Assembly: GCA_964577055.1 (NCBI GenBank)
Contig: CAZNWC010000001.1
Location: 129 to 64,128 of the forward strand
From: an uncultured Chitinophaga sp.
Lineage (GTDB): Bacteria; Bacteroidota; Bacteroidia; UBA7662
DNA: 64,000 bases
Reading direction: 5' to 3'
Made by a program: the position numbers and the translations under genes. Shown in pieces: positions 1 to 52,402 of the stretch. The notes beneath the pieces were generated by a model. That model was given only the letters and a program-made list of their open reading frames with translations, was not told where the DNA came from and made no database searches. Each line of letters opens with the position of its first letter. Within the stretch, counting starts at the first letter, position 1.

Positions 1-2241
1 CTCGAGCAGCTCAAAAAGCTGGGCGCCTCGCTCGATTGGAACCGCACGGCCTTTACCATGGACCCCGGCTTGAGCGAAGCGGTGATCGACGTATTTATTG
101 ATCTGTATAAAAAAGGCTATATCTACCGTGGCATGCGCATGGTGAACTGGGACCCCCAGGGCCTCACCGCCGTAGCCGACGACGAGGTGATTTTCAAGGA
201 TGTGAACAGTAAAATGTACTACATCCGCTACCAGATTGTAGGCAGCGACGGTTATGTGACCATTGCCACGGTGCGTCCCGAGACCATCATGGCCGACAGT
301 GCCATTTGCATCCACCCCGACGACGAGCGTTTCCGCCACCTCCACGGCAAACAGGCCTATATTCCGTTGATCAACCGCGCCATTCCCATCATTTTGGATG
401 AGTATGTAGCCATGGACTTCGGTACGGGCTGTTTGAAGGTAACCCCGGCGCATGACCCGAATGACTACGAACTGGGCATCAAGCACAACCTGCCCGTGAT
501 CGATATTTTGAACGACAACGGCACCCTGAACGAAAAAGCCCAGATTTTGGTGGGCGAAGACCGCTTTATTGCCCGGAAAAAGATTGCCAAGCTGCTCGAA
601 GAAAGCGGCAATTTGGTGAAAGCCGAAGATTACAAAAGCAATGTAGGCCACAGCGAGCGCACCAATGCGGTGATTGAGCCGCGTTTGAGCATGCAGTGGT
701 TTGTGAAGATGGATGAAATCACAAAGCCCGCCTTGGAGTATGTGATGCAGGGCGACATCCGCCTCATTCCCGATAAGTTCATCAACACCTACCGCCACTG
801 GATGGAAAATGTGCGCGACTGGTGTATTTCGCGCCAGTTGTGGTGGGGCCACCGCATTCCGGCCTGGTACGCGCCCGACGGAAGCATTTACGTTGCCCGC
901 ACCGCCGAAGAAGCCGCTGCCCAAAGTGGAGGCAAGCACCAAGCCGCCGAGCTGAAGCAAGACGACGACGTACTCGACACCTGGTTCTCAAGCTGGTTGT
1001 GGCCGCTCACCGTTTTCGACCACGAAATCATCCGCAAATCGCCAGCCGAAGCCAATGCCGATTTGCGCTACTACTACCCTACTGCGGTACTGGTTACGGC
1101 CCCCGAAATCCTGTTTTTCTGGGTGGCCCGCATGATCATTTCCGGACATGAATACATGGGCGAAATTCCGTTCAAGGACGTTTACCTCACCGGCATTGTG
1201 CGCGATAAACAAGGCCGCAAAATGTCGAAATCGTTGGGAAATAGTCCCGACCCGCTCGACCTCATTGCCGAATACGGTGCCGACAGCGTGCGCATGGGCA
1301 TGTTGTTCAGCTCGCCTGCAGGCAACGATTTGTTATTCGACATCAGCCTCATTGAGCAGGGCCGCAACTTTGCCAACAAAATCTGGAATGCCTTCCGCCT
1401 CATCAAGGGTTGGGAAGTGGTTGAAGGCGATGCTCAAAATCCGGCCATCGTTTGGTTCGGTGAGCGTTTGAAAGCCGGCATTGCCGAAATTGAAAAGGCC
1501 TACGACAGCTACCGGTTGTCGGAGATGATTCGCAGCTTGTACAAACTCATTTGGGACGACTTCTGCAGCTGGTACCTCGAAATGATTAAGCCGGCTTATG
1601 GCCAACCCATTGACAGGGCCACCTACGAAGCCACCATCGCCTATTTCGACCAATTGATGGGCTTGCTGCACCCGGTAATGCCCTTCATCACCGAAGAATT
1701 GTGGCACGAAATTGACCCCAACCGCAAGCAAGATGAATTCCTTTGCCTGGCCCAATATCCTCAAGCAGAAGCTATTAACGAAGTCTATCTGAATGAAAGC
1801 AGCAAGGTGCAGGAACTCATTTCAGAGATCCGTAACGTGCGCAACCAAAAGCAGGTTCCGGTAAAGAGTTTGGTGGAGTTGTACCTCACCAGCACCAATC
1901 CCATTTACCAGGAGTTCGAAGCCATTGTTTGCAAGCTGGCGGGTGTAGAAAAGGTGCATTATGTGAACGAAAAGCCCTCGGGTTTGGCCTCCTTCCTGGT
2001 GCGCACCGACGAGTGTTTCCTCGACCTCAAGCTTGAGATTGACGTAGAAGCCGAAAGAGAAAAGCTGCAGAAAGAGCTGGTGTACCAGCTAGGCTTTTTG
2101 AACTCGGTAATGAAGAAGCTGGGCAACGAAAAGTTTGTGGCTGGTGCCCCTGCTGCCGTACTCGAAAATGAGCGTAAGAAGCAGGCCGATGCAGAGAGCA
2201 AGATTGCGCAGTTGGAGGAAGCAATCCATCGACTGTCATGA
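1..2241 (+). CDS. valS: Valyl-tRNA synthetase, 5'-truncated by the window edge. The reading frame is open from nt 1 (LEQLKKLGASLDWNRTAFTMD...).
   Basis: Class I aaRS KMSKS motif (KMSKSLGN), editing-domain and anticodon-binding-like sequence, C-terminal coiled coil. In frame from position 1. Confidence 0.9.
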   Translation, partial: LEQLKKLGASLDWNRTAFTMDPGLSEAVIDVFIDLYKKGYIYRGMRMVNWDPQGLTAVADDEVIFKDVNSKMYYIRYQIVGSDGYVTIATVRPETIMADSAICIHPDDERFRHLHGKQAYIPLINRAIPIILDEYVAMDFGTGCLKVTPAHDPNDYELGIKHNLPVIDILNDNGTLNEKAQILVGEDRFIARKKIAKLLEESGNLVKAEDYKSNVGHSERTNAVIEPRLSMQWFVKMDEITKPALEYVMQGDIRLIPDKFINTYRHWMENVRDWCISRQLWWGHRIPAWYAPDGSIYVARTAEEAAAQSGGKHQAAELKQDDDVLDTWFSSWLWPLTVFDHEIIRKSPAEANADLRYYYPTAVLVTAPEILFFWVARMIISGHEYMGEIPFKDVYLTGIVRDKQGRKMSKSLGNSPDPLDLIAEYGADSVRMGMLFSSPAGNDLLFDISLIEQGRNFANKIWNAFRLIKGWEVVEGDAQNPAIVWFGERLKAGIAEIEKAYDSYRLSEMIRSLYKLIWDDFCSWYLEMIKPAYGQPIDRATYEATIAYFDQLMGLLHPVMPFITEELWHEIDPNRKQDEFLCLAQYPQAEAINEVYLNESSKVQELISEIRNVRNQKQVPVKSLVELYLTSTNPIYQEFEAIVCKLAGVEKVHYVNEKPSGLASFLVRTDECFLDLKLEIDVEAEREKLQKELVYQLGFLNSVMKKLGNEKFVAGAPAAVLENERKKQADAESKIAQLEEAIHRLS

Positions 2242-2381
2242 TCCAACCTTCTTATCCATAGTGCTTATGCAAAAAGACTGTGCTTTCCTTTCTTTTAGAA
2301 AGTCAGCAAAGCGGAGCCTACTTAACGCTTGGCATTGATAATTCACATATTGGTGTTTATTGCGATAATTTAAGCAAATGC

Positions 2382-3233
2382 TTATTGCGGTTTAAATCTA
2401 TACCTTATGCCAAAATCAATGTAGAATTGGCTAAAATGTTCAACTTTGCCCTGAAAAAGTTGACCGTAATTAACCAAGCCCCTACCCATTTGAAAATTGG
2501 TATTAAATGCCCATTTTGGAGAAAACTGCCATTCATAAGTGACCGGAAGTAACAGGGTGATGTACAGTCCTCTTCTGCTTGTAAGAGTCTGGGTGTTTAC
2601 TGTACTATTCAATTCAGAAGAGGCAGCATCGTATTGAAAATCAAATCGCTTAACAACGATTTGACGGTAAAGCAATTCTGTACCGATACGGCCTGCAAAT
2701 CCAAAATAAAAACCATGCTTGTTGTTAGAAGAGTTTAATCGAAATTGGTATTTTGCAACCATTTCTACCAGGTCAAGCACTTCTTCAAAGATCATAATAG
2801 CAGATTGAATGGCGGTATCAGAGCTCAGTTGTGAGAAATTTGGCAGTACCTGTCTGTAATCAGCACGTCTCCCTGGATGTACCTGATAACTTAAACCCAA
2901 GTCAAATCTGGTTTGAAATGGCTTGTGTTGATGTTCCGCTTTATCCCAACCAAGCGATAAACCAAATTGCCGAAATGGCAATTGCTCACTTTGCGTAATT
3001 TGCCTATTTGGATGATTTGTATACCGACCTAAATAATTACCCTCAACAGATTCAAAAGGCCCTGTGCGCAGTTTTCGATAAATACTAGCATGCAAATTAA
3101 GCGGTTCGTTATAATAAAAACCACCTAAACCAGGATTGAAATGAAACTGCAATTGATCAGGCTTCCAACTACCTTGTGAAAATGCACTAACAGATAAAAT
3201 TAACAGTACAAGCAGATTGGTTATTTTTTTCAT
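2382..3233 (-). CDS. Hypothetical secreted, beta-rich, outer-membrane-like protein. Islet cargo.
   Basis: N-terminal signal peptide (MKKITNLLVLLILSVSAFSQ). Alternating hydrophobic pattern with an aromatic-rich C-terminus (..IRYRFKPQ). Lies in low-GC DNA between duplicated valS 3' ends. Confidence 0.5.
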   Translation of the reverse strand: MKKITNLLVLLILSVSAFSQGSWKPDQLQFHFNPGLGGFYYNEPLNLHASIYRKLRTGPFESVEGNYLGRYTNHPNRQITQSEQLPFRQFGLSLGWDKAEHQHKPFQTRFDLGLSYQVHPGRRADYRQVLPNFSQLSSDTAIQSAIMIFEEVLDLVEMVAKYQFRLNSSNNKHGFYFGFAGRIGTELLYRQIVVKRFDFQYDAASSELNSTVNTQTLTSRRGLYITLLLPVTYEWQFSPKWAFNTNFQMGRGLVNYGQLFQGKVEHFSQFYIDFGIRYRFKPQ

Positions 3234-3284
3234 GATCTATTTTTGTTTATGTCTATTCAAAATGCGAGGAGCAACCAATCAAAG

Positions 3285-4841
3285 TCAGGGAATGATTTCC
3301 AAATCGACTTCAATACCAGAATGCACATTAACATAGTGCTTATCAGCCAAAGAACTTATGAAAGGATTAAATTGCCGTGTGTGATACGTAATTGGACCAT
3401 AAGACAGGATATTTGCAGGTAATGTTAATGGCGTCCAAGTCCAGACATCCGTAGCAAAAGTTTGAAAATGGGGGCCTTGAAAAATAGCATCTTGATGAAT
3501 ACCTATGTATGCAAAAGGGATATTCTTTGATTTTTGAATTGTGTTTCTATTCCTTGCTGTTTTAATCTTCAGCTGTAATTGAAATCTCGAACTGTTAGTA
3601 GGGTCAAAATCAACATCCTTACTGTCATTAAATGTCGGATATGGTTCTATTCCCCAAGGACTCAGTTTAATTTGACCGTCGTCATCAGTAAAATCATAAA
3701 CCATTGCATTTTTTGGAACAATGCCTTTCGTTCTTCCATGAAAATTATATTCATAAATGATTAATTGTAAAAAATTATAATCTAAACAGTTCTTCATCCA
3801 TTTATCGTATATGATTTGATAATCCAATTCTACATCAACCCAGTCTCCATTCTTAACTTTTTTTCTCGATACTTTATCAGCCAATATCCCACCTTCTACA
3901 ATGTGACCTAACCAAGGATCACTATCATTGCGATTCCTTCCAAAAACCTCATAAACATCATTTCCAAAAGATGCTATTGAATATCTAACTTCTGACTTTC
4001 CTTCTGTCCATCTCTCTTTGTGTTCTTTTAACTTTATTCTTGAGATTTTAATTGAAGAGTATTCTGGGTTGCACCCGGTTGGGAAAAATGAAGGTTCCCT
4101 GAAACCTGAAGCGTTTTCATTAGTATTAAGACCTTCATTTAATGAAATTACCCAAACTGAGTTTGATTCTAGCATTTCAGGATCAACCATAACTTGAATA
4201 AATTCTGTCCCATTAAAAATAAAGCCTTCATAGGATTCATCTTCAAATAACTCTTCCGCATCGAAATACGGGCACCATACCACAATGGGAATTGTATTTT
4301 CATGGTTGTTCAAAAACTCTTCATCAGACCAATACTCCGCATCTGGGCTATACACTTGACTATTGAGTGAATAAATACCTCCCTCATCATCGGCAAAAAA
4401 AAATGAACTTAAAAAATTCGGATTAATTGCTTCTGGTGAAGCCGAAATTAACTCTGAATTCAAATTCCCATAATTTCTTGAGGTATATTCACTTGATATT
4501 TGCGGTATTAGAGCATTAAAATCTCCATCAAATTCTAATGCGATTAGTTCCCTTGTCAATCTCACAAAATTTTGGTTAGAATATGCCAGATAAGCGACAC
4601 CCATCGCAGTTGCTCTTAAATTGTCATTGATTTCAGTCTCAGACAAAAATACTCCTGAGGATGAGGATGAGGATGAGGATGAGGATGAGGATGAGGATGA
4701 GGATAAAGCTTGATTTCGATGCCTTTCATTCCCTTCAATCTGATTAAATGAATCTTTTTTACAACTCGTTTGAAATGTAGACAAACAAATAACGAGTAAA
4801 ATTACAACGAGTAAAATTACACGGTTAAACGCATTTTTCAT
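3285..4841 (-). CDS. Hypothetical lipoprotein with a poly-Ser linker. Islet cargo.
   Basis: Signal peptide ending ..LSTFQTSC (lipobox-like Cys). A 16-18 residue Ser run encoded by a perfect (GAGGAT)8 repeat at 4657-4704. No recognisable domain. Low GC. Confidence 0.55.
   Translation of the reverse strand: MKNAFNRVILLVVILLVICLSTFQTSCKKDSFNQIEGNERHRNQALSSSSSSSSSSSSSSSSGVFLSETEINDNLRATAMGVAYLAYSNQNFVRLTRELIALEFDGDFNALIPQISSEYTSRNYGNLNSELISASPEAINPNFLSSFFFADDEGGIYSLNSQVYSPDAEYWSDEEFLNNHENTIPIVVWCPYFDAEELFEDESYEGFIFNGTEFIQVMVDPEMLESNSVWVISLNEGLNTNENASGFREPSFFPTGCNPEYSSIKISRIKLKEHKERWTEGKSEVRYSIASFGNDVYEVFGRNRNDSDPWLGHIVEGGILADKVSRKKVKNGDWVDVELDYQIIYDKWMKNCLDYNFLQLIIYEYNFHGRTKGIVPKNAMVYDFTDDDGQIKLSPWGIEPYPTFNDSKDVDFDPTNSSRFQLQLKIKTARNRNTIQKSKNIPFAYIGIHQDAIFQGPHFQTFATDVWTWTPLTLPANILSYGPITYHTRQFNPFISSLADKHYVNVHSGIEVDLEIIP
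4657..4704. repeat. Perfect hexanucleotide tandem repeat (GAGGAT)x8 inside the lipoprotein CDS, encoding poly-Ser.
   Basis: Read directly from the sequence. It is in-frame (6 nt), so slippage would change linker length without a frameshift. Confidence 0.9.
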
Positions 4842-5055
4842 GGTAATGTCTATGTTTGAGATATTTTCTCTATAACTTTAACATTACTAATGTAATTATT
4901 TTATCTTGTAAAAAAAAAAAAATGTTCCTACAACTCTTTGTTTGTAAGCCGAAGGTTTGGCTCTGCGACCTTCTTGAAAAACCGACAGCATCGTCGGTAC
5001 TGGACAAGCTGCGTAAGTAGCGTAGTTAAAAGGCTACGTACATCGTAGCCAGTCG

Positions 5056-5235
5056 AAGCTGCAGAAAGAGTTGGTGTACCAGCAAGGTTTTTTGAACTCG
5101 GTGATGAAGAAGCTGGGCAACGAAAAGTTTGTGGCTGGTGCCCCTGCTGCCGTACTCGAAAATGAGCGTAAGAAGCAGGCCGATGCAGAGAGCAAGATCA
5201 ATCAACTAACAGAAGCAATAAACCGTCTGAACTAA
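5056..5235 (+). pseudogene. Orphan duplicate of the valS 3' end. It encodes ..[59 protein letters not shown]. There is an in-frame stop just upstream at 5023-5025 and no start codon.
   Basis: About 150 nt are near-identical to 2062-2211, including ~100 nt of perfect identity, followed by a diverged tail. This is the displaced original 3' end (attR-side remnant). Confidence 0.8.
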
Positions 5236-5296
5236 GCCTTCAGGCGGTTTTTCGCTGAGCTGCCACCGCCTTAGCCACATTCTCACGAATGTACTT

Positions 5297-5755
5297 TTAT
5301 ATCCTTTCGTATTCCCATTGATCTCTTACGATGCGATCGTGATACCTGGCTTGCAACGCGAATTTAGGATGATGCAACCTCGCAGCTTTGGTAACCCCCA
5401 CTTTAAAACCACGAACCACCGAGGCCAAATTCATCGATTGCGGGCCAAAGTGATTTTGGGCATGTTCATCTGAATTGTTGAGCTTCTTGGTAAAAATCAA
5501 AAGGCCGTGCACATGATCGGGCATCACTATAAATTCATCAATCACTACATCAGGGAAATGCTGCGGAATGGCTTGCCAGCAATCGAGCGCCGCTTGTCCG
5601 GCGGGAGATAAAACCATCTGCTCCCCAACAATCTCACCGAAAACACGAATCCGATTTTGGGTAACAATGGTGATGAAATAGGCAGAAGCATTGGCATAAT
5701 CCCAAAATCCTGCCCTGATCTTTTTCCGTTGAGGAAGAATGGTGACCTTTCGCAT
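5297..5755 (-). mobile_element. IS200/IS605-family Y1 (HUH) transposase, REP-associated tyrosine transposase (RayT)-like.
   Basis: 152 aa. HUH motif (..MPDHVHGLL..). Overall similarity to the Transposase_17 (PF01797)/RayT family. Single copy, adjacent to palindromic repeats. Confidence 0.75.
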
Positions 5756-5840
5756 ATCCTGTGATTAATAAGAACATGAAAATACAAAATCTACCTGAAT
5801 ATAGATTTAAAGGCCGCACGATTATGAATCTCCTTATGGC

Positions 5841-6046
5841 TAGGCAGGCGAAGCCTGCCTTGTACGGCCACAATATTTTGTGGCCGTTAAGCCGGCAAAT
5901 CTTGCCGGCTTTACTTGCCGCAAGATTCTGCGGCAGATTTAGCTGCAAGATTTAGCCGCAAGATTCTGCAACAGATTTAGCTGTAAGATTTTGCAGCTTG
6001 AATTTCGGCCACAAAATTTTGTGGCCCGACTAGCCGCCAGCGGCTA
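5841..6046. repeat. Cluster of REP-like palindromes and tandem repeats upstream of the RayT-like gene.
   Basis: Hairpins: aggcaggc-gaa-gcctgcct (5841-5859); ggccacaa-tatt-ttgtggcc (5865-5884) and a near-identical copy ggccacaa-aatt-ttgtggcc (6006-6025); gccggcaa-atc-ttgccggc (5890-5908); ctagccgc-c-a-gcggctag (6029-6046). A ~28-nt tandem unit gcaagattctgcNNcagatttagct runs x2.5 over 5916-5998. Confidence 0.8.
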
Positions 6047-7168
6047 GCTCACCAGCTCGCGAGCAAATACTTCCCAGCTGAACTCCTGCTTTTTTACAGC
6101 CACCTTGGCCGACATTTCTGCAAAACGATTGTTTTGTACAAAATCAAGCATGCAATCGGCAATTTGTGTGGGTACCCGCTCGCATACATAACCCGATTGG
6201 CGGTCATCGACCAATTCGCTGAGCCCACCCACATTGGTTACCAACATGGGTGTATCGAACTGAAAACCTACTTGGGTAACCCCACTTTGGGTAGCGTGGT
6301 GGTAGGTTTGGGTAACCAGCGAGGCTGCTGAGAAATAGTATTTCACTTGGTCGTCGGCGATGAAGCGGGTATGCATCTCTACCCTTTCGGCCAAGTTGTG
6401 CTCGCGGATGAGGCGGTAATATCGGTCGGGATTTTCGTAAAACTCACCCGCCACAATGAGCTTCACTTTGTGCTTCTTCAAGCGTACATCGGCGAAGGAT
6501 TGGAGCAGCAAATCAAGCCCTTTGTACTGCCTGATAAAGCCAAAAAACAGGAAGTATGTATAATCAGGCGACAAGCCCAACGCTTTTAATGCTTCTTCTC
6601 GCGCTACTTTCTCTCCATAATTGTCGTAGAGCGGGTGTTTGAGTAGTTTTTGGCCACCTTTGAAGCCAAACTGTTGCAAATCGTCGCGCACCGATGCCGA
6701 TAAGGTATGTACATCTTCCATCTGCCGTAAAAAGTAAGCGGTTAGTGGTCGCGACAAAGGAAAGGGCTCGTGCGGTATAATGTTGTCGGCAATGGCCACA
6801 CGGCGTGCTTTGCTGCCGAAAAACCGGCTCCAGCGCGCTACAAAGCCCAGGCAAGGCGCCATAAAGGGCATCCAGTAACGGAAAATGAGTACTTCTGCCC
6901 CACTCTTGGCAATGTAACGGGCAGTTTTTAACCAACTGAATGGATTGATGGAGTTGATTAATACCTTTATTTTCAGATCAGCTGGGGCTGCCTCTTCAGA
7001 TAATTGAGTCTTGCCAGGAAACAAAAACGCAGGATATTGGAGGCTAAAGGTAATGATCTCTACCTTGTAGCCGAGTTCCATGTAAGCACGCGCCAACCTT
7101 TCGTTAAAGGTCGACATGCCACCTCCGCGCAGTGGCCAAGCCGGGCCTACAATGATAATTTTACGCAA
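6044..7168 (-). CDS. Glycosyltransferase, family 1 (GT4-like).
   Basis: GT-B fold with a Glycos_transf_1-like C-terminal half (..EFSWEVFAREL). 374 aa. 8-nt overlap with the upstream GT2 gene. Confidence 0.8.
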   Translation of the reverse strand: MRKIIIVGPAWPLRGGGMSTFNERLARAYMELGYKVEIITFSLQYPAFLFPGKTQLSEEAAPADLKIKVLINSINPFSWLKTARYIAKSGAEVLIFRYWMPFMAPCLGFVARWSRFFGSKARRVAIADNIIPHEPFPLSRPLTAYFLRQMEDVHTLSASVRDDLQQFGFKGGQKLLKHPLYDNYGEKVAREEALKALGLSPDYTYFLFFGFIRQYKGLDLLLQSFADVRLKKHKVKLIVAGEFYENPDRYYRLIREHNLAERVEMHTRFIADDQVKYYFSAASLVTQTYHHATQSGVTQVGFQFDTPMLVTNVGGLSELVDDRQSGYVCERVPTQIADCMLDFVQNNRFAEMSAKVAVKKQEFSWEVFARELVS

Positions 7169-8144
7169 TGCCAGTGGTTTGACGAATCAAATAGCGGTTT
7201 CGGTCGGCCGAGCTGCGCGATACCAACTCTGCGAGAAAACCAGTCAGAAACAACTGTACCCCGATGATCACCAGCACCAACGCCAAGAAAAACAATGGCT
7301 GTGCGGTGATGTCACGATGCGGCAATCCTTGGGCTATTTTTGACAGCTTTTCGTAAATCACCACCAGGGTAATCACCCCACCAGTAAAAAACGACAAAGT
7401 GCCAATCAAACCGAAAAAGTGCATCGGCTTTTTGCCAAAGCGACCTACGAAATAGATCGACATCAAGTCAAGAAAGCCATTGATAAAGCGTTCCAAGCCA
7501 AATTTGGTGTGTCCGTATTTGCGCGCCCGGTGCTCCACTACCTGCTCTTCGATGCGCTTGAAGCCCGCCCATTTGGCAATCACCGGAATGTAGCGGTGCA
7601 TTTCGCCGTACACTTCAATGCTTTTTACCACTTCACGGCGGTACACCTTCAATCCACAATTAAAATCATGCAGGTTGTTGATGCCCGAAACTTTGCGAGT
7701 AGCCCAATTGAATAATTTGGTGGGAATGGTTTTGCTGAGGGGATCGTATCTTTTGCGCTTCCAGCCACTGATCAAATCGAGGCCTTCGTCGAACAAGCGC
7801 CGGTACATGGCAGGCAGTTCATCCGGACTGTCTTGCAAATCGGCATCCATGGTAAACACCGCCTTGCCTCGGGCAGCTTCGAAGCCTACATTGAGCGCAG
7901 CAGATTTTCCATAGTTCCGTTGAAAACGAATGCCCTTGACAGCGGGAAAACGCGTCGACAGTTGTTCGATCACTTGCCAGGAGTTGTCAGTGCTGCCATC
8001 ATCGATAAAAATCACCTCATAGCTAAAGCCTTCCTGCTCCATCACCCGCACCAACCATTCAGTAAGTTCGGGCAATGATTCTTCTTCGTTCAATTGTGGT
8101 ATGACTACCGAGATGTCAAGCTCCTGCATCCGTATTTTCTTCAA
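7161..8144 (-). CDS. Family 2 glycosyltransferase, polyprenol-phosphate sugar transferase type (DPM1/ArnC-like), with two C-terminal TM helices.
   Basis: VVIPQLNEEESL..IFIDDGSTDNS (GT2 DXD context). C-terminal hydrophobic helices. Confidence 0.85.
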   Translation of the reverse strand: MKKIRMQELDISVVIPQLNEEESLPELTEWLVRVMEQEGFSYEVIFIDDGSTDNSWQVIEQLSTRFPAVKGIRFQRNYGKSAALNVGFEAARGKAVFTMDADLQDSPDELPAMYRRLFDEGLDLISGWKRKRYDPLSKTIPTKLFNWATRKVSGINNLHDFNCGLKVYRREVVKSIEVYGEMHRYIPVIAKWAGFKRIEEQVVEHRARKYGHTKFGLERFINGFLDLMSIYFVGRFGKKPMHFFGLIGTLSFFTGGVITLVVIYEKLSKIAQGLPHRDITAQPLFFLALVLVIIGVQLFLTGFLAELVSRSSADRNRYLIRQTTGIA

Positions 8145-8676
8145 AAAGGTCAGGGGTGCGTTTTACAAAAGCGCCAACGATAAGGGCAACCACCGCACTA
8201 AAAATGCTGCTGATCAGCAATGCCGTAACCAATGATCTAAAGTCTTGTTTAAAGTCACGGGCTTCCATGCCTTCCAGCGCTTTCTCAATATCAGCATCGG
8301 ATGCACCAAACTTCTCCATCATGGAAGCCGTATTTTCGATGGTCAGCTCCTTGATAGTATCTGCCAATCCTGGGTCAATAACGTTGTACAGCACGGCATT
8401 GAAGGCCACCCCTACGATACTTGAAATTACGCCTATGCCTATACCTGTTACCACAGCTTCACCGTAAGGAAGCGCGTTGTTGTTCAGTTTGCGTTGCTCG
8501 CGGGTTCCCAATACCATGAAAACAACAACCAACACAAGAGAGATGGCTGAATTCCAAAAAGAAATGAGCAAGCTCACATCTACGATGTACAGCAAAAGGA
8601 GGTAAACTACGTTAACACCGCCCAAAAATAAGCCCCATTTAACAAGGGGCTTTTCAAAAAAGCCTTGTGATTCCAT
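8116..8676 (-). CDS. DUF4199-family membrane protein. The start is assigned to the MESQGFFEKP Met.
   Basis: Four TM helices and sequence typical of Bacteroidota DUF4199 (MESQGFFEKPLVKWGLFLGG..). Confidence 0.7.
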   Translation of the reverse strand: MESQGFFEKPLVKWGLFLGGVNVVYLLLLYIVDVSLLISFWNSAISLVLVVVFMVLGTREQRKLNNNALPYGEAVVTGIGIGVISSIVGVAFNAVLYNVIDPGLADTIKELTIENTASMMEKFGASDADIEKALEGMEARDFKQDFRSLVTALLISSIFSAVVALIVGAFVKRTPDLFEENTDAGA

Positions 8677-8683
8677 ATGTGTT

Positions 8684-9202
8684 TTAATTTCGATAATAAA
8701 TAGACACCATAAAGCCAATCAACAAACTCCACATCAATCGAAAGAAAAAGGTGGTGAGTGCGATATACGACTTACTGGCATTCAAGATACTTTCTTTTAT
8801 CTTTTCAAACTGACCAGCCGCATAATTTTTTTCAATGGTGGCCCTTCCTTGTTCCAGGGTTCGTAACTGATCGTCGATGTGTAATTGCCAAAGTGGATCA
8901 CTCAAATGAATCCAAACCCACAAAGCCAAGGAATAAAAAAGTGCACTTACCAGTCCTACAGCCAACGAAACCATAAAGCCATGGGTAACTGTCAAATTCC
9001 CTTGGTTGTAAATGTATTTATAGTTCCGCATGGCCAACACCATTACCACCACGGTAATTACCCCAATCAGTAAGCGAAACTGCCCCATGGGGTCATAGTG
9101 AAAATTGAAAAGCAGTAATGCAGCCATCAACGAAAATGACGCTGCATACATGCCATAGCGCAATCCCACTGTAAGCATGGCATACTTCAACAATTCTCTC
9201 AT
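8684..9202 (-). CDS. DUF4199-family membrane protein, tandem paralogue.
   Basis: Same topology and length class as the neighbouring gene. Tandem duplication. Confidence 0.6.
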   Translation of the reverse strand: MRELLKYAMLTVGLRYGMYAASFSLMAALLLFNFHYDPMGQFRLLIGVITVVVMVLAMRNYKYIYNQGNLTVTHGFMVSLAVGLVSALFYSLALWVWIHLSDPLWQLHIDDQLRTLEQGRATIEKNYAAGQFEKIKESILNASKSYIALTTFFFRLMWSLLIGFMVSIYYRN

Positions 9203-52034: not shown

Positions 52035-52035
52035 G

Positions 52036-52402
52036 TGGAGCTGCAGGGAGTCGAACCCTGGTCCAGACAAGCGGATCTGAAGCTTTCTACATGCTTAGCC
52101 TACCGTTGGTTGTCGGGAAACTGCAGGTCGGCGGCTTACCAACAATTTCCGTAGTTGCTGTTTGTTTCAACTTTGGCCCGCAACAAGCCGCTGTCTATTT
52201 TCTTATCGGTTATGCCTCCATATGCACCAACTAAGAAACCCATCGGTACGGAGACAACTCAAGCGTAATTCCTAGAATTACGCAGCGAGTGCGTAGTTGT
52301 TTTCGCCAGTTATGGCTCGAGCGTTCCGATTTACGAGGTCACGCACAAAACTCGGCATGCTTACCTGAGTCTCCATTCAAGCTGTCGATTCCGGTCAGCC
52401 CC
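52036..52402 (-). ncRNA. ssrA: tmRNA (SsrA), tag peptide GENNYALAA.
   Basis: 5' GGGGCUG and 3' CAGCUCCA form a tRNA-Ala-like acceptor stem with a G3:U pair. The T-arm is GGTTCGACTCCC. The internal reading frame is GGC GAA AAC AAC TAC GCA CTC GCT GCG TAA. Confidence 0.9.

Follow-up and report, generated by a model that had tools for sequence, protein, structure and literature searches.

How does an essential gene come to have its 3′ end twice, once in place and once on the far side of a stretch of DNA of low G+C content (GC)? The question is raised by a 64,000-nucleotide (nt) stretch from an uncultured Chitinophaga sp. (NCBI GenBank assembly GCA_964577055.1, contig CAZNWC010000001.1, positions 129 to 64,128 of the forward strand), to which we refer, in its entirety, as the window. 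Here, the end of valS, the gene encoding valine–tRNA ligase, recurs beyond a 2.8-kb islet that encodes two proteins (Table 1). A first-pass annotation, made from the sequence of the window, had taken this arrangement for the footprint of a site-specific integrative element that brought its own replacement gene end. We find it probable that the locus is the scar of a long-past insertion like that of e14 at icd, which has been vertically inherited and slowly dismantled and which holds no active mobile element. As a scar it is ordinary in kind; its target is unusual.

The two copies of the gene end, copy A in the working valS and copy B in the orphan, are 180 nt each, lie in one reading frame, and have their stop codons at equal offset in a base-by-base comparison. 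Their first 143 nt differ at four positions only (2077, 2090, 2094, and 2109), and the longest identical run measures 95 nt (2110-2204, corresponding to 5104-5198). In the last 37 nt there are 18 mismatches. The repeat of about 150 nt, its perfect run of about 100 nt, and its differing ends are therefore as originally described. Upstream of 2062 and 5056 the homology breaks off sharply, and the orphan frame is closed by an in-frame stop codon at 5023-5025. The C-terminal arm domain PF10458 is covered from position 1 to position 65 of 66 in the valS of the window, and copy B also matches it (E 8.5e−11). The encoded protein is 96% identical to a full-length relative of 871 amino acids (aa) in a protein search (P0001), and its C-terminus has the same length as in 871-aa relatives, in agreement with the earlier view that the copy adjoining the islet keeps valS intact. 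At position 2090 (and 2109), the working valS carries a private Gln-to-Leu change (..VYQLGF..), and at the matching positions of the orphan (5084 and 5103) the Gln of every relative is found; at this residue, the orphan fragment holds the ancestral state.

Table 1. Positions of features at the valS locus of the window
Feature	Position	Strand	Remarks
valS, valine–tRNA ligase	58..2241	+	NF004349, 883 bits; PF00133, PF08264, PF10458; 5′ end truncated by window edge, C-terminus whole
Repeat copy A, working last 59 valS codons and stop; coiled-coil tRNA-binding arm	2062..2241	+	ends in IAQLEEAIHRLS, stop codon TGA
Exported 283-aa protein, probable outer-membrane beta-barrel	2382..3233	−	signal-like N-terminus, C-terminal motif FGIRYRF
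Lipoprotein-like 518-aa protein	3285..4841	−	signal peptide, Cys27, 16-Ser run, two folded domains; first in two-gene operon, often lost
(GGATGA)n repeat, encoding poly-Ser linker	4656..4703		length strain-variable
A13 homopolymer, presumed promoter region of the 518/283 operon	4910..4922		length strain-variable
Terminator-like hairpin and TTTT, abutting left edge of orphan	5032..5050	−	consensus match only
Repeat copy B, orphan valS 3′ end, displaced pseudogene fragment	5056..5235	+	different C-terminal peptide, stop codon TAA
RAYT-like gene (IS200/Y1-type, REP-associated), 152 aa	5297..5755	−	NF047646, E 3e−8, below cutoff
REP-like palindrome cluster beside RAYT-like gene	5859..6033		repeat scan
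GT4 glycosyltransferase, ancestral convergent neighbor of valS	6044..7168	−	PF00534, PF13692

The structure is not an artifact of assembly, because independent Logan assemblies give the same junctions. In data set SRR14454018, one contig (L086) leads from tail A into the islet (2156-4685 at 100% identity), and another (L096) covers the junction of tail B, the RAYT-like gene, and the GT4 gene (5150-7105 at 99.95%). A contig from SRR26372662 (L097), which has five similar contigs beside it, starts in copy A, crosses the islet, and ends in copy B (2113-5133, 96.5% identity).

The islet between the copies consists of two minus-strand open reading frames (ORFs) and spacers of 140, 51, and 214 nt (about 400 nt in total). 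Its GC is 0.37 to 0.38 for 2242-3233 and 0.35 for 3285-4841, against 0.53 in valS and 0.49 in the downstream genes, and it contains the lowest-GC 1-kb windows of the entire 64 kb; the AT-richness reported in the first-pass annotation is thus evident. Both ORFs have signal-like N-termini, consistent with its description of two putatively exported proteins. No integrase, excisionase, or fragment of either was found in the five versions of the islet seen (window, L081, L082, L088, and L097), which upholds the observation that no integrase remains and extends it to remnants. The two ORFs have no recombinase match in Pfam, NCBIfam, PHROGs, or PADLOC, and no recombinase lies in or near the islet, both flanks of which are conserved core genes.

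To place the islet in a wider context, we compared the contigs of relatives retrieved by a valS protein search (96%, 85%, 83%, and 77-79% identity). A contig scan with the valS C-terminus was of no use for synteny, since among the matches listed all relatives were at ≤50% identity. In the wider family (L091, L092, and L094), valS converges directly on the GT4 gene at a distance of 5 to 22 nt, and this arrangement is the ancestral state. In L083 (valS 85% identical), the order is valS, RAYT-like gene, and GT4 gene, with no islet. In L082 (also 85%), valS is followed by the 283-aa gene, a frameshifted 518-aa gene, and the GT4 gene, with neither the orphan nor the RAYT-like gene. Closer to the window, L081 (valS 96% identical) has valS, a gene for a 282-aa protein, and the GT4 gene, and L088-90 (96.8% DNA identity) have valS, the 283-aa gene, and then a 61-nt internal remnant of the RAYT-like gene (window 5364-5424 in L088) and unrelated genes. 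The islet is therefore found at the same site in three other lineages (L081, L082, and L088-90), with different deletions in each, and the duplication itself is seen in the window's own species only.

That the orphan is a displaced gene end, as had been claimed, is borne out by L083: window positions 5056-5784 align as one block to L083 12437-13161 (73% identity), including the sequence just past the stop codon, so that the orphan is contiguous with the RAYT-like gene in the same way as the real valS end is in L083. In L081, window positions 3266-5748 are cleanly lost and 78 nt are kept (5749-5826, the start of the RAYT-like gene and the sequence upstream of it). The RAYT remnants in L081 and L088 indicate that the ancestor of the window group had the full structure, which read valS, tail A, 283-aa gene, 518-aa gene, tail B, RAYT-like gene, and GT4 gene and which is best preserved in the window. 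When L081, L082, L083, and window positions 5756-6043 were searched for additional orphan ends of valS, the scores were no better than those of shuffled sequence, and tandem accretion with a third tail is consequently unsupported.

The age of the islet was assessed by synonymous divergence (dS). Between the window and L081, dS is 0.58 for the 283-aa gene and 0.57 for valS; between the window and L082, the values are 2.35 and 2.63, respectively. The corresponding ratios of nonsynonymous to synonymous divergence (dN/dS) for the 283-aa gene are 0.18 and 0.09. Because the dS values of the 283-aa gene equal those of valS, the islet has co-diverged with valS and is old and inherited. In L081 and L082, the islet has just as low a GC, which is therefore a stable property and no mark of recent arrival. 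The first-pass annotation had named an ancestral, syntenic state of uniform GC as evidence against an integrative element. The synteny is there, since three other lineages carry the islet at this site, and its 283-aa gene has the dS of valS; the GC, however, is not uniform, and the duplication is confined to one species. Given that the cassette occurs at valS in this clade only and diverges as valS does, the islet does not appear to be mobile.

If the locus is old, the near-identity of the two copies requires an explanation of its own. Over its first 143 nt, copy B differs from copy A at 4 positions, from L088 at 9, from L081 at 17, from L082 at 27, and from L083 at 34; the distance of copy A to L081 equals that of copy B (17 over 143 nt). 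The last 37 nt of copy B, in turn, show 16 to 20 differences from every valS tail examined, and drift alone since the old insertion should have left the entire copy in a similar condition. The copy A block differs from L088 at only 7 of 143 nt and is therefore native to the lineage, which sets the direction of conversion from A to B. The simplest reading is that B was recently converted from A, with the tract ending sharply on its right at 2204/5198: the copies look near-identical because the first 143 nt of B were overwritten from A. In the strain represented by L097, which is 96.5% identical overall, copy A contains a 39-nt patch with 13 differences (ASAPEQVLANERK; positions 28-66 of the reverse complement, corresponding to window 2140-2178) that resembles the allele of L083 and the outgroup, and this suggests a small recombination patch within the essential gene. 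The block shared by copies A and B is only about 30 nt in L097; homogenization is therefore strain-dependent, and the perfect block of the window is no conserved attachment (att) core, the role in which it had initially been cast.

Exchange of whole alleles can also be traced at this locus. L082 (10001-16514) and L091 (8001-11778) are 93 to 98% identical through valS and the first 240 nt of the GT4 gene and about 70% identical deeper in the GT4 gene. Within this shared backbone, they differ in the islet, in the last ~84 nt of valS (with the switch at approximately window position 2159), and in the last ~12 codons of the GT4 gene. The difference is the replacement of one allele by another through a double crossover in the genes on either side. 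The breakpoint near 2159 was considered as an att crossover and rejected because the end of the GT4 gene was swapped, too. As a close pair of occupied and empty sites, L082 and L091 offer no clean att-bounded insertion. The valS-GT4 junction appears to be a frequent end point of homologous exchange between lineages.

We propose the following history for the scar. In the ancestor of this clade of uncultured Bacteroidia, the starting order would have been valS, RAYT-like gene, and GT4 gene. Incoming DNA of about 3 kb, with the operon for the lipoprotein and the barrel and its own copy of the valS end, would have been joined to valS by a single (Campbell-type) crossover within the final 180 nt of the gene, and the product would have been the valS body with tail A, the islet, the displaced tail B, the RAYT-like gene, and the GT4 gene, with the essential gene left whole. 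The crossover may have been made by an integrase acting in trans or by homologous recombination of the host. After the insertion, the islet diverged at the pace of valS and remained low in GC, and the useless copy B drifted, its last 37 nt becoming AT-rich and half different from copy A and its first 143 nt being recently converted from A. L081 and L088 have since lost the lipoprotein gene together with copy B and the greater part of the RAYT-like gene, although they still have the barrel gene, and L082 has lost copy B and the RAYT-like gene. Homologous recombination in the neighboring genes also swaps alleles with and without the islet among lineages.

Several observations weigh against this history. 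In L082, tail A encodes nearly the same peptide as the tail at the empty site of L083, so that tail A need not have come from outside and may stem from a duplication of the target in place. A neighbor-joining tree of valS, which carries no support values, has L083 branching with the window group and L091 with L082, so that the order of gains and losses is not fixed and the distribution of the islet is patchy, needing several losses or exchanges. No closely related empty site was found, and L083 is only 73 to 79% identical, for which reason the original crossover is not reconstructable. The low GC has persisted through dS > 2, for which the proposed history does not account. Finally, the assignment of the 283-aa protein as a barrel rests on a poor structural model, with a predicted local distance difference test score (pLDDT) of 42.6.

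Among the alternatives, the one closest to the first-pass annotation derives the islet from an integrase-driven element like e14 at icd, which carried the valS 3′ end in its attachment site (attP) and whose integrase and remainder were deleted later. The geometry is identical, with direct repeats of the target end, a restored gene, and the displaced end on the far side; the interior is low in GC; and all tails next to the islet (window, L081, L088, L097, and L082) are of one type and end in TGA, with all other tails ending in TAA. Insertion in this manner at protein-coding genes is known from other elements, whose repeat blocks can reach ~250 bp (PMC7192596), the case of e14, icd, and icdC being one of them (PMC13626634). 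We nevertheless consider this origin unlikely. The five islet versions, with spacers of only some 400 nt, have no trace of an integrase or excisionase, and the cassette, for which a search next to integrases elsewhere had been suggested, was never seen with one, nor was it seen in viral contigs. Its distant counterpart in L099 does not lie at valS within the 4.8 kb seen. Moreover, the islet co-diverges with the host gene, and the identity block represents recent conversion and not an att core. The original interpretation thus holds as far as an insertion relative to the ancestral valS/GT4 order of L091, L092, and L094 and a Campbell geometry are concerned, and a site-specific element is unsupported.

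A second alternative reverses the roles, in that the inserted piece would be the orphan. The valS tail, the RAYT-like gene, and part of the GT4 gene would have entered an islet-bearing, L082-like genome from an L083-like relative by homology-facilitated illegitimate recombination, through a homologous crossover in the GT4 gene and an illegitimate join at 5055/5056, with the orphan as a passenger. This route requires neither a circular intermediate nor an integrase. Genomes of both expected kinds exist, as L082 has the islet without the orphan or the RAYT-like gene and L083 has the RAYT-like gene without the islet, and the L082/L091 mosaic documents homologous exchange across the locus. However, L083 must then be an independent state, and the orphan tail is no nearer to L083 than to the other copies (17 of 37 positions differ). 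The RAYT-like gene of the window is also as diverged from that of L083 (dS 2.5) as the remainder of the genome is, and microhomology at 5055/5056 is not evident. On balance, we regard an imported orphan as quite doubtful.

We give still less credence to a third scenario, in which a ~3-kb cassette without an integrase hitchhikes on an essential gene, the copy of the 3′ end on board serving it as portable homology. Recombination between copies A and B would release such a cassette as a circle, which would re-enter the valS of related cells by RecA-mediated single crossover, leaving valS intact at all times. L083 could then be a looped-out site, and the patchy distribution in the clade could reflect gain and loss. 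The L097-type contigs comprise one repeat period, with ends that overlap in the shared block, and fit a circle and a chromosomal repeat alike; the scenario has no positive support. The remaining explanation, an artifact of assembly or binning, is hardly credible: short-read assemblies do break at the repeat and Logan contigs end inside it, but both junctions were separately recovered in SRR14454018, and the SRR26372662 contig and its five counterparts span copy A, the islet, and copy B in a strain that is 3.5% diverged, which also answers the reservation on this point in the first-pass annotation.

Returning to the favored reading of an old, decaying insertion scar, we examined what the islet carries. 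The gene for the 283-aa protein is found in every islet-bearing lineage, with dN/dS of 0.09 to 0.18, and is the retained, selected gene of the islet. In L081 (13607-13738), the region upstream of the RAYT-like start and the first 7 nt of that gene now lie directly upstream of the 282-aa gene; in L088 (4824-6852), the 283-aa gene follows a gene for a PorV-like 349-aa protein in the same orientation. The barrel gene has thus been kept and re-sited where the lipoprotein gene was lost. The 283-aa protein has no match in Pfam, NCBIfam, or PDB. The low-confidence AlphaFold2 model is all-beta after residue 88 and was too poor for a structure search. The C-terminal FGIRYRF motif resembles the beta-signal of barrel proteins and, together with the signal peptide and the all-beta model, points to an outer-membrane barrel. 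The only hint of a family is a match of the homologue in L099 to OMP_b-brl at E 0.022.

The N-terminus of the 518-aa protein reads ..LSTFQTSC27KKD, and the four family members that were read all have lipoprotein-type N-termini with a Cys near residue 17 to 21. The lipoprotein and barrel pair proposed in the first-pass annotation is a putative one, with a lipobox-like Cys27 in one partner and a low-confidence all-beta model for the other. The source record apparently starts the gene at an internal Met and gives a 439-aa product (P0121), and this is why an exact look-up of the 518-aa ORF returned no entry. The shorter reading lacks the signal peptide and the lipobox Cys as well as the poly-Ser linker; the longer one is favored by homologues that share the N-terminal region (P0148 and P0150). 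Both families are tiny in an index of 5.8 billion proteins. A full HMMER scan retrieved 45 representatives of the 518-aa family, and in ten members scanned, no Pfam domain was found in the shared region.

The closest outside homologue of the lipoprotein (P0148) is 40% identical, and 13 nt after its gene follows that of a 287-aa protein, 24% identical to the 283-aa protein (E 7e−19). The same gene pair is found in L099 and L100. The P0148/L099 locus is low in GC and has neither valS nor a RAYT-like gene within the 4.8 kb seen. Because of this counterpart, the lipoprotein and barrel genes can be regarded as a conserved pair, and we infer that they make up one operon, the products of which would be an exported lipoprotein and a small barrel in the outer membrane. 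JGI metagenome scans were empty, whether for the lipoprotein family or for the precise junction of islet and orphan, and so was a scan for the cassette in viral contigs. PADLOC and PHROGs gave no meaningful match that would support the novel defense or toxin module suggested in the first-pass annotation.

Simple repeats in the lipoprotein gene and upstream of it vary among strains. The poly-Ser run has 16 Ser in the window and 8 in L097 and L098, and the A-tract, which has 13 residues in the window, is longer in these two strains (27 in L097, ≥22 in L098), with the caveat that short-read assemblies are prone to error in long homopolymers. At ~4790-4822, the window encodes a 5-residue repeat of the signal peptide, LLVVI, that is missing from L097. 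The strain-variable repeats hint at variable surface expression, possibly phase variation; the differences in length could represent phase or antigenic variation or, alternatively, short-read homopolymer error.

Beyond the orphan lies the RAYT-like gene, whose protein has an HVH (HUH-like) motif and a C-terminal Tyr motif, RYHDRIV, as read from the sequence. It scores 33.6 bits against NF047646 (cutoff 80), and its orthologue in L083 scores 22.7 bits against PF01797 (cutoff 23). Between the two orthologues, dN/dS is 0.06 at a dS of 2.5. The gene is an older neighbor of the valS end that lies outside the islet, and its position, which it shares with the L083 orthologue, together with strong purifying selection makes it look domesticated rather than mobile. 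Y1/HUH transposases are not known to make long target duplications. As an agent of the valS duplication, the RAYT-like gene was considered and rejected, for this reason and because it is an older resident shared with L083. In the adjacent REP-like cluster, the motif GCNGCAAGATTYTGC occurs in 4 copies, with none elsewhere in the 64 kb (0.07 expected). Beyond the GT4 gene, a run of core genes is collinear in all relatives. An Rfam search over positions 1-9000 gave no match. A tmRNA gene (tag GENNYALAA) is located at 52035-52402 on the minus strand of the same window; tmRNA genes are classic integration sites of islands.

Taken at face value, a duplicated gene end with a low-GC interior resembles a fresh integrative element, and the valS locus calls for caution in this respect: it is clade-old and vertically inherited, its att-like identity appears to arise from gene conversion that continues today, and its GC has remained low even as synonymous divergence reached saturation. 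The locus documents valS as a target, the coiled-coil C-terminal arm of which tolerates replacement. It also draws attention to a rare, uncharacterized gene pair of Bacteroidota, a lipoprotein followed by a small probable barrel, of which the barrel is under purifying selection and has been repeatedly rescued. The current understanding of mobile elements is unchanged.

Among known systems, islands at the 3′ ends of tRNA and tmRNA genes, including degraded ones that have lost their integrase, follow the same attL/attR logic with a restored target. They share with the valS islet a distinct interior composition, decaying ends, and movement between strains by homologous recombination in the flanks. 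In contrast to them, the target at valS is protein-coding, the repeat is far longer than a typical tRNA att block, and no integrase remnant ties the islet to a family. With RAYT genes and their REP clusters, the gene next to the orphan has in common the HVH and C-terminal Tyr motifs, the adjacent palindromes, and purifying selection, but it scores below curated cutoffs, the repeats are found only beside the gene in the 64 kb, and nothing ties it mechanistically to the 180-nt duplication.

Campbell-type insertion-duplication, as produced with suicide plasmids or transformed circular DNA, yields the identical product, with the homologous segment on both sides and the gene intact if the segment reaches the stop codon, and requires no dedicated recombinase. 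It is, however, known mainly as a laboratory technique, and a natural 3-kb circle with a valS end would be hypothetical.

The closest likeness is to the cryptic prophage e14 (and phage 21) at icd in Escherichia coli K-12. The general rule for integrative elements and the long icd repeat block are described in PMC7192596; for e14, PMC13626634, citing Hill et al. 1989, describes the icdC fragment left as a displaced gene end and a recombination between the copies that can remove the insert and yield a chimeric gene. Both there and here, the target is a housekeeping protein-coding gene, direct repeats of its 3′ end bound the insert, the gene is completed by the insert-side copy with a slightly different C-terminus, and the displaced end remains as an orphan on the far side. 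Whereas e14 measures ~15 kb, has its own integrase, and still excises, the valS islet has 2.8 kb and two cargo genes without a recombinase, is clade-old, and gives no sign of excision. Also unlike e14, the valS copies are kept alike by gene conversion, up to a sharp edge before the diverged 37-nt tail.

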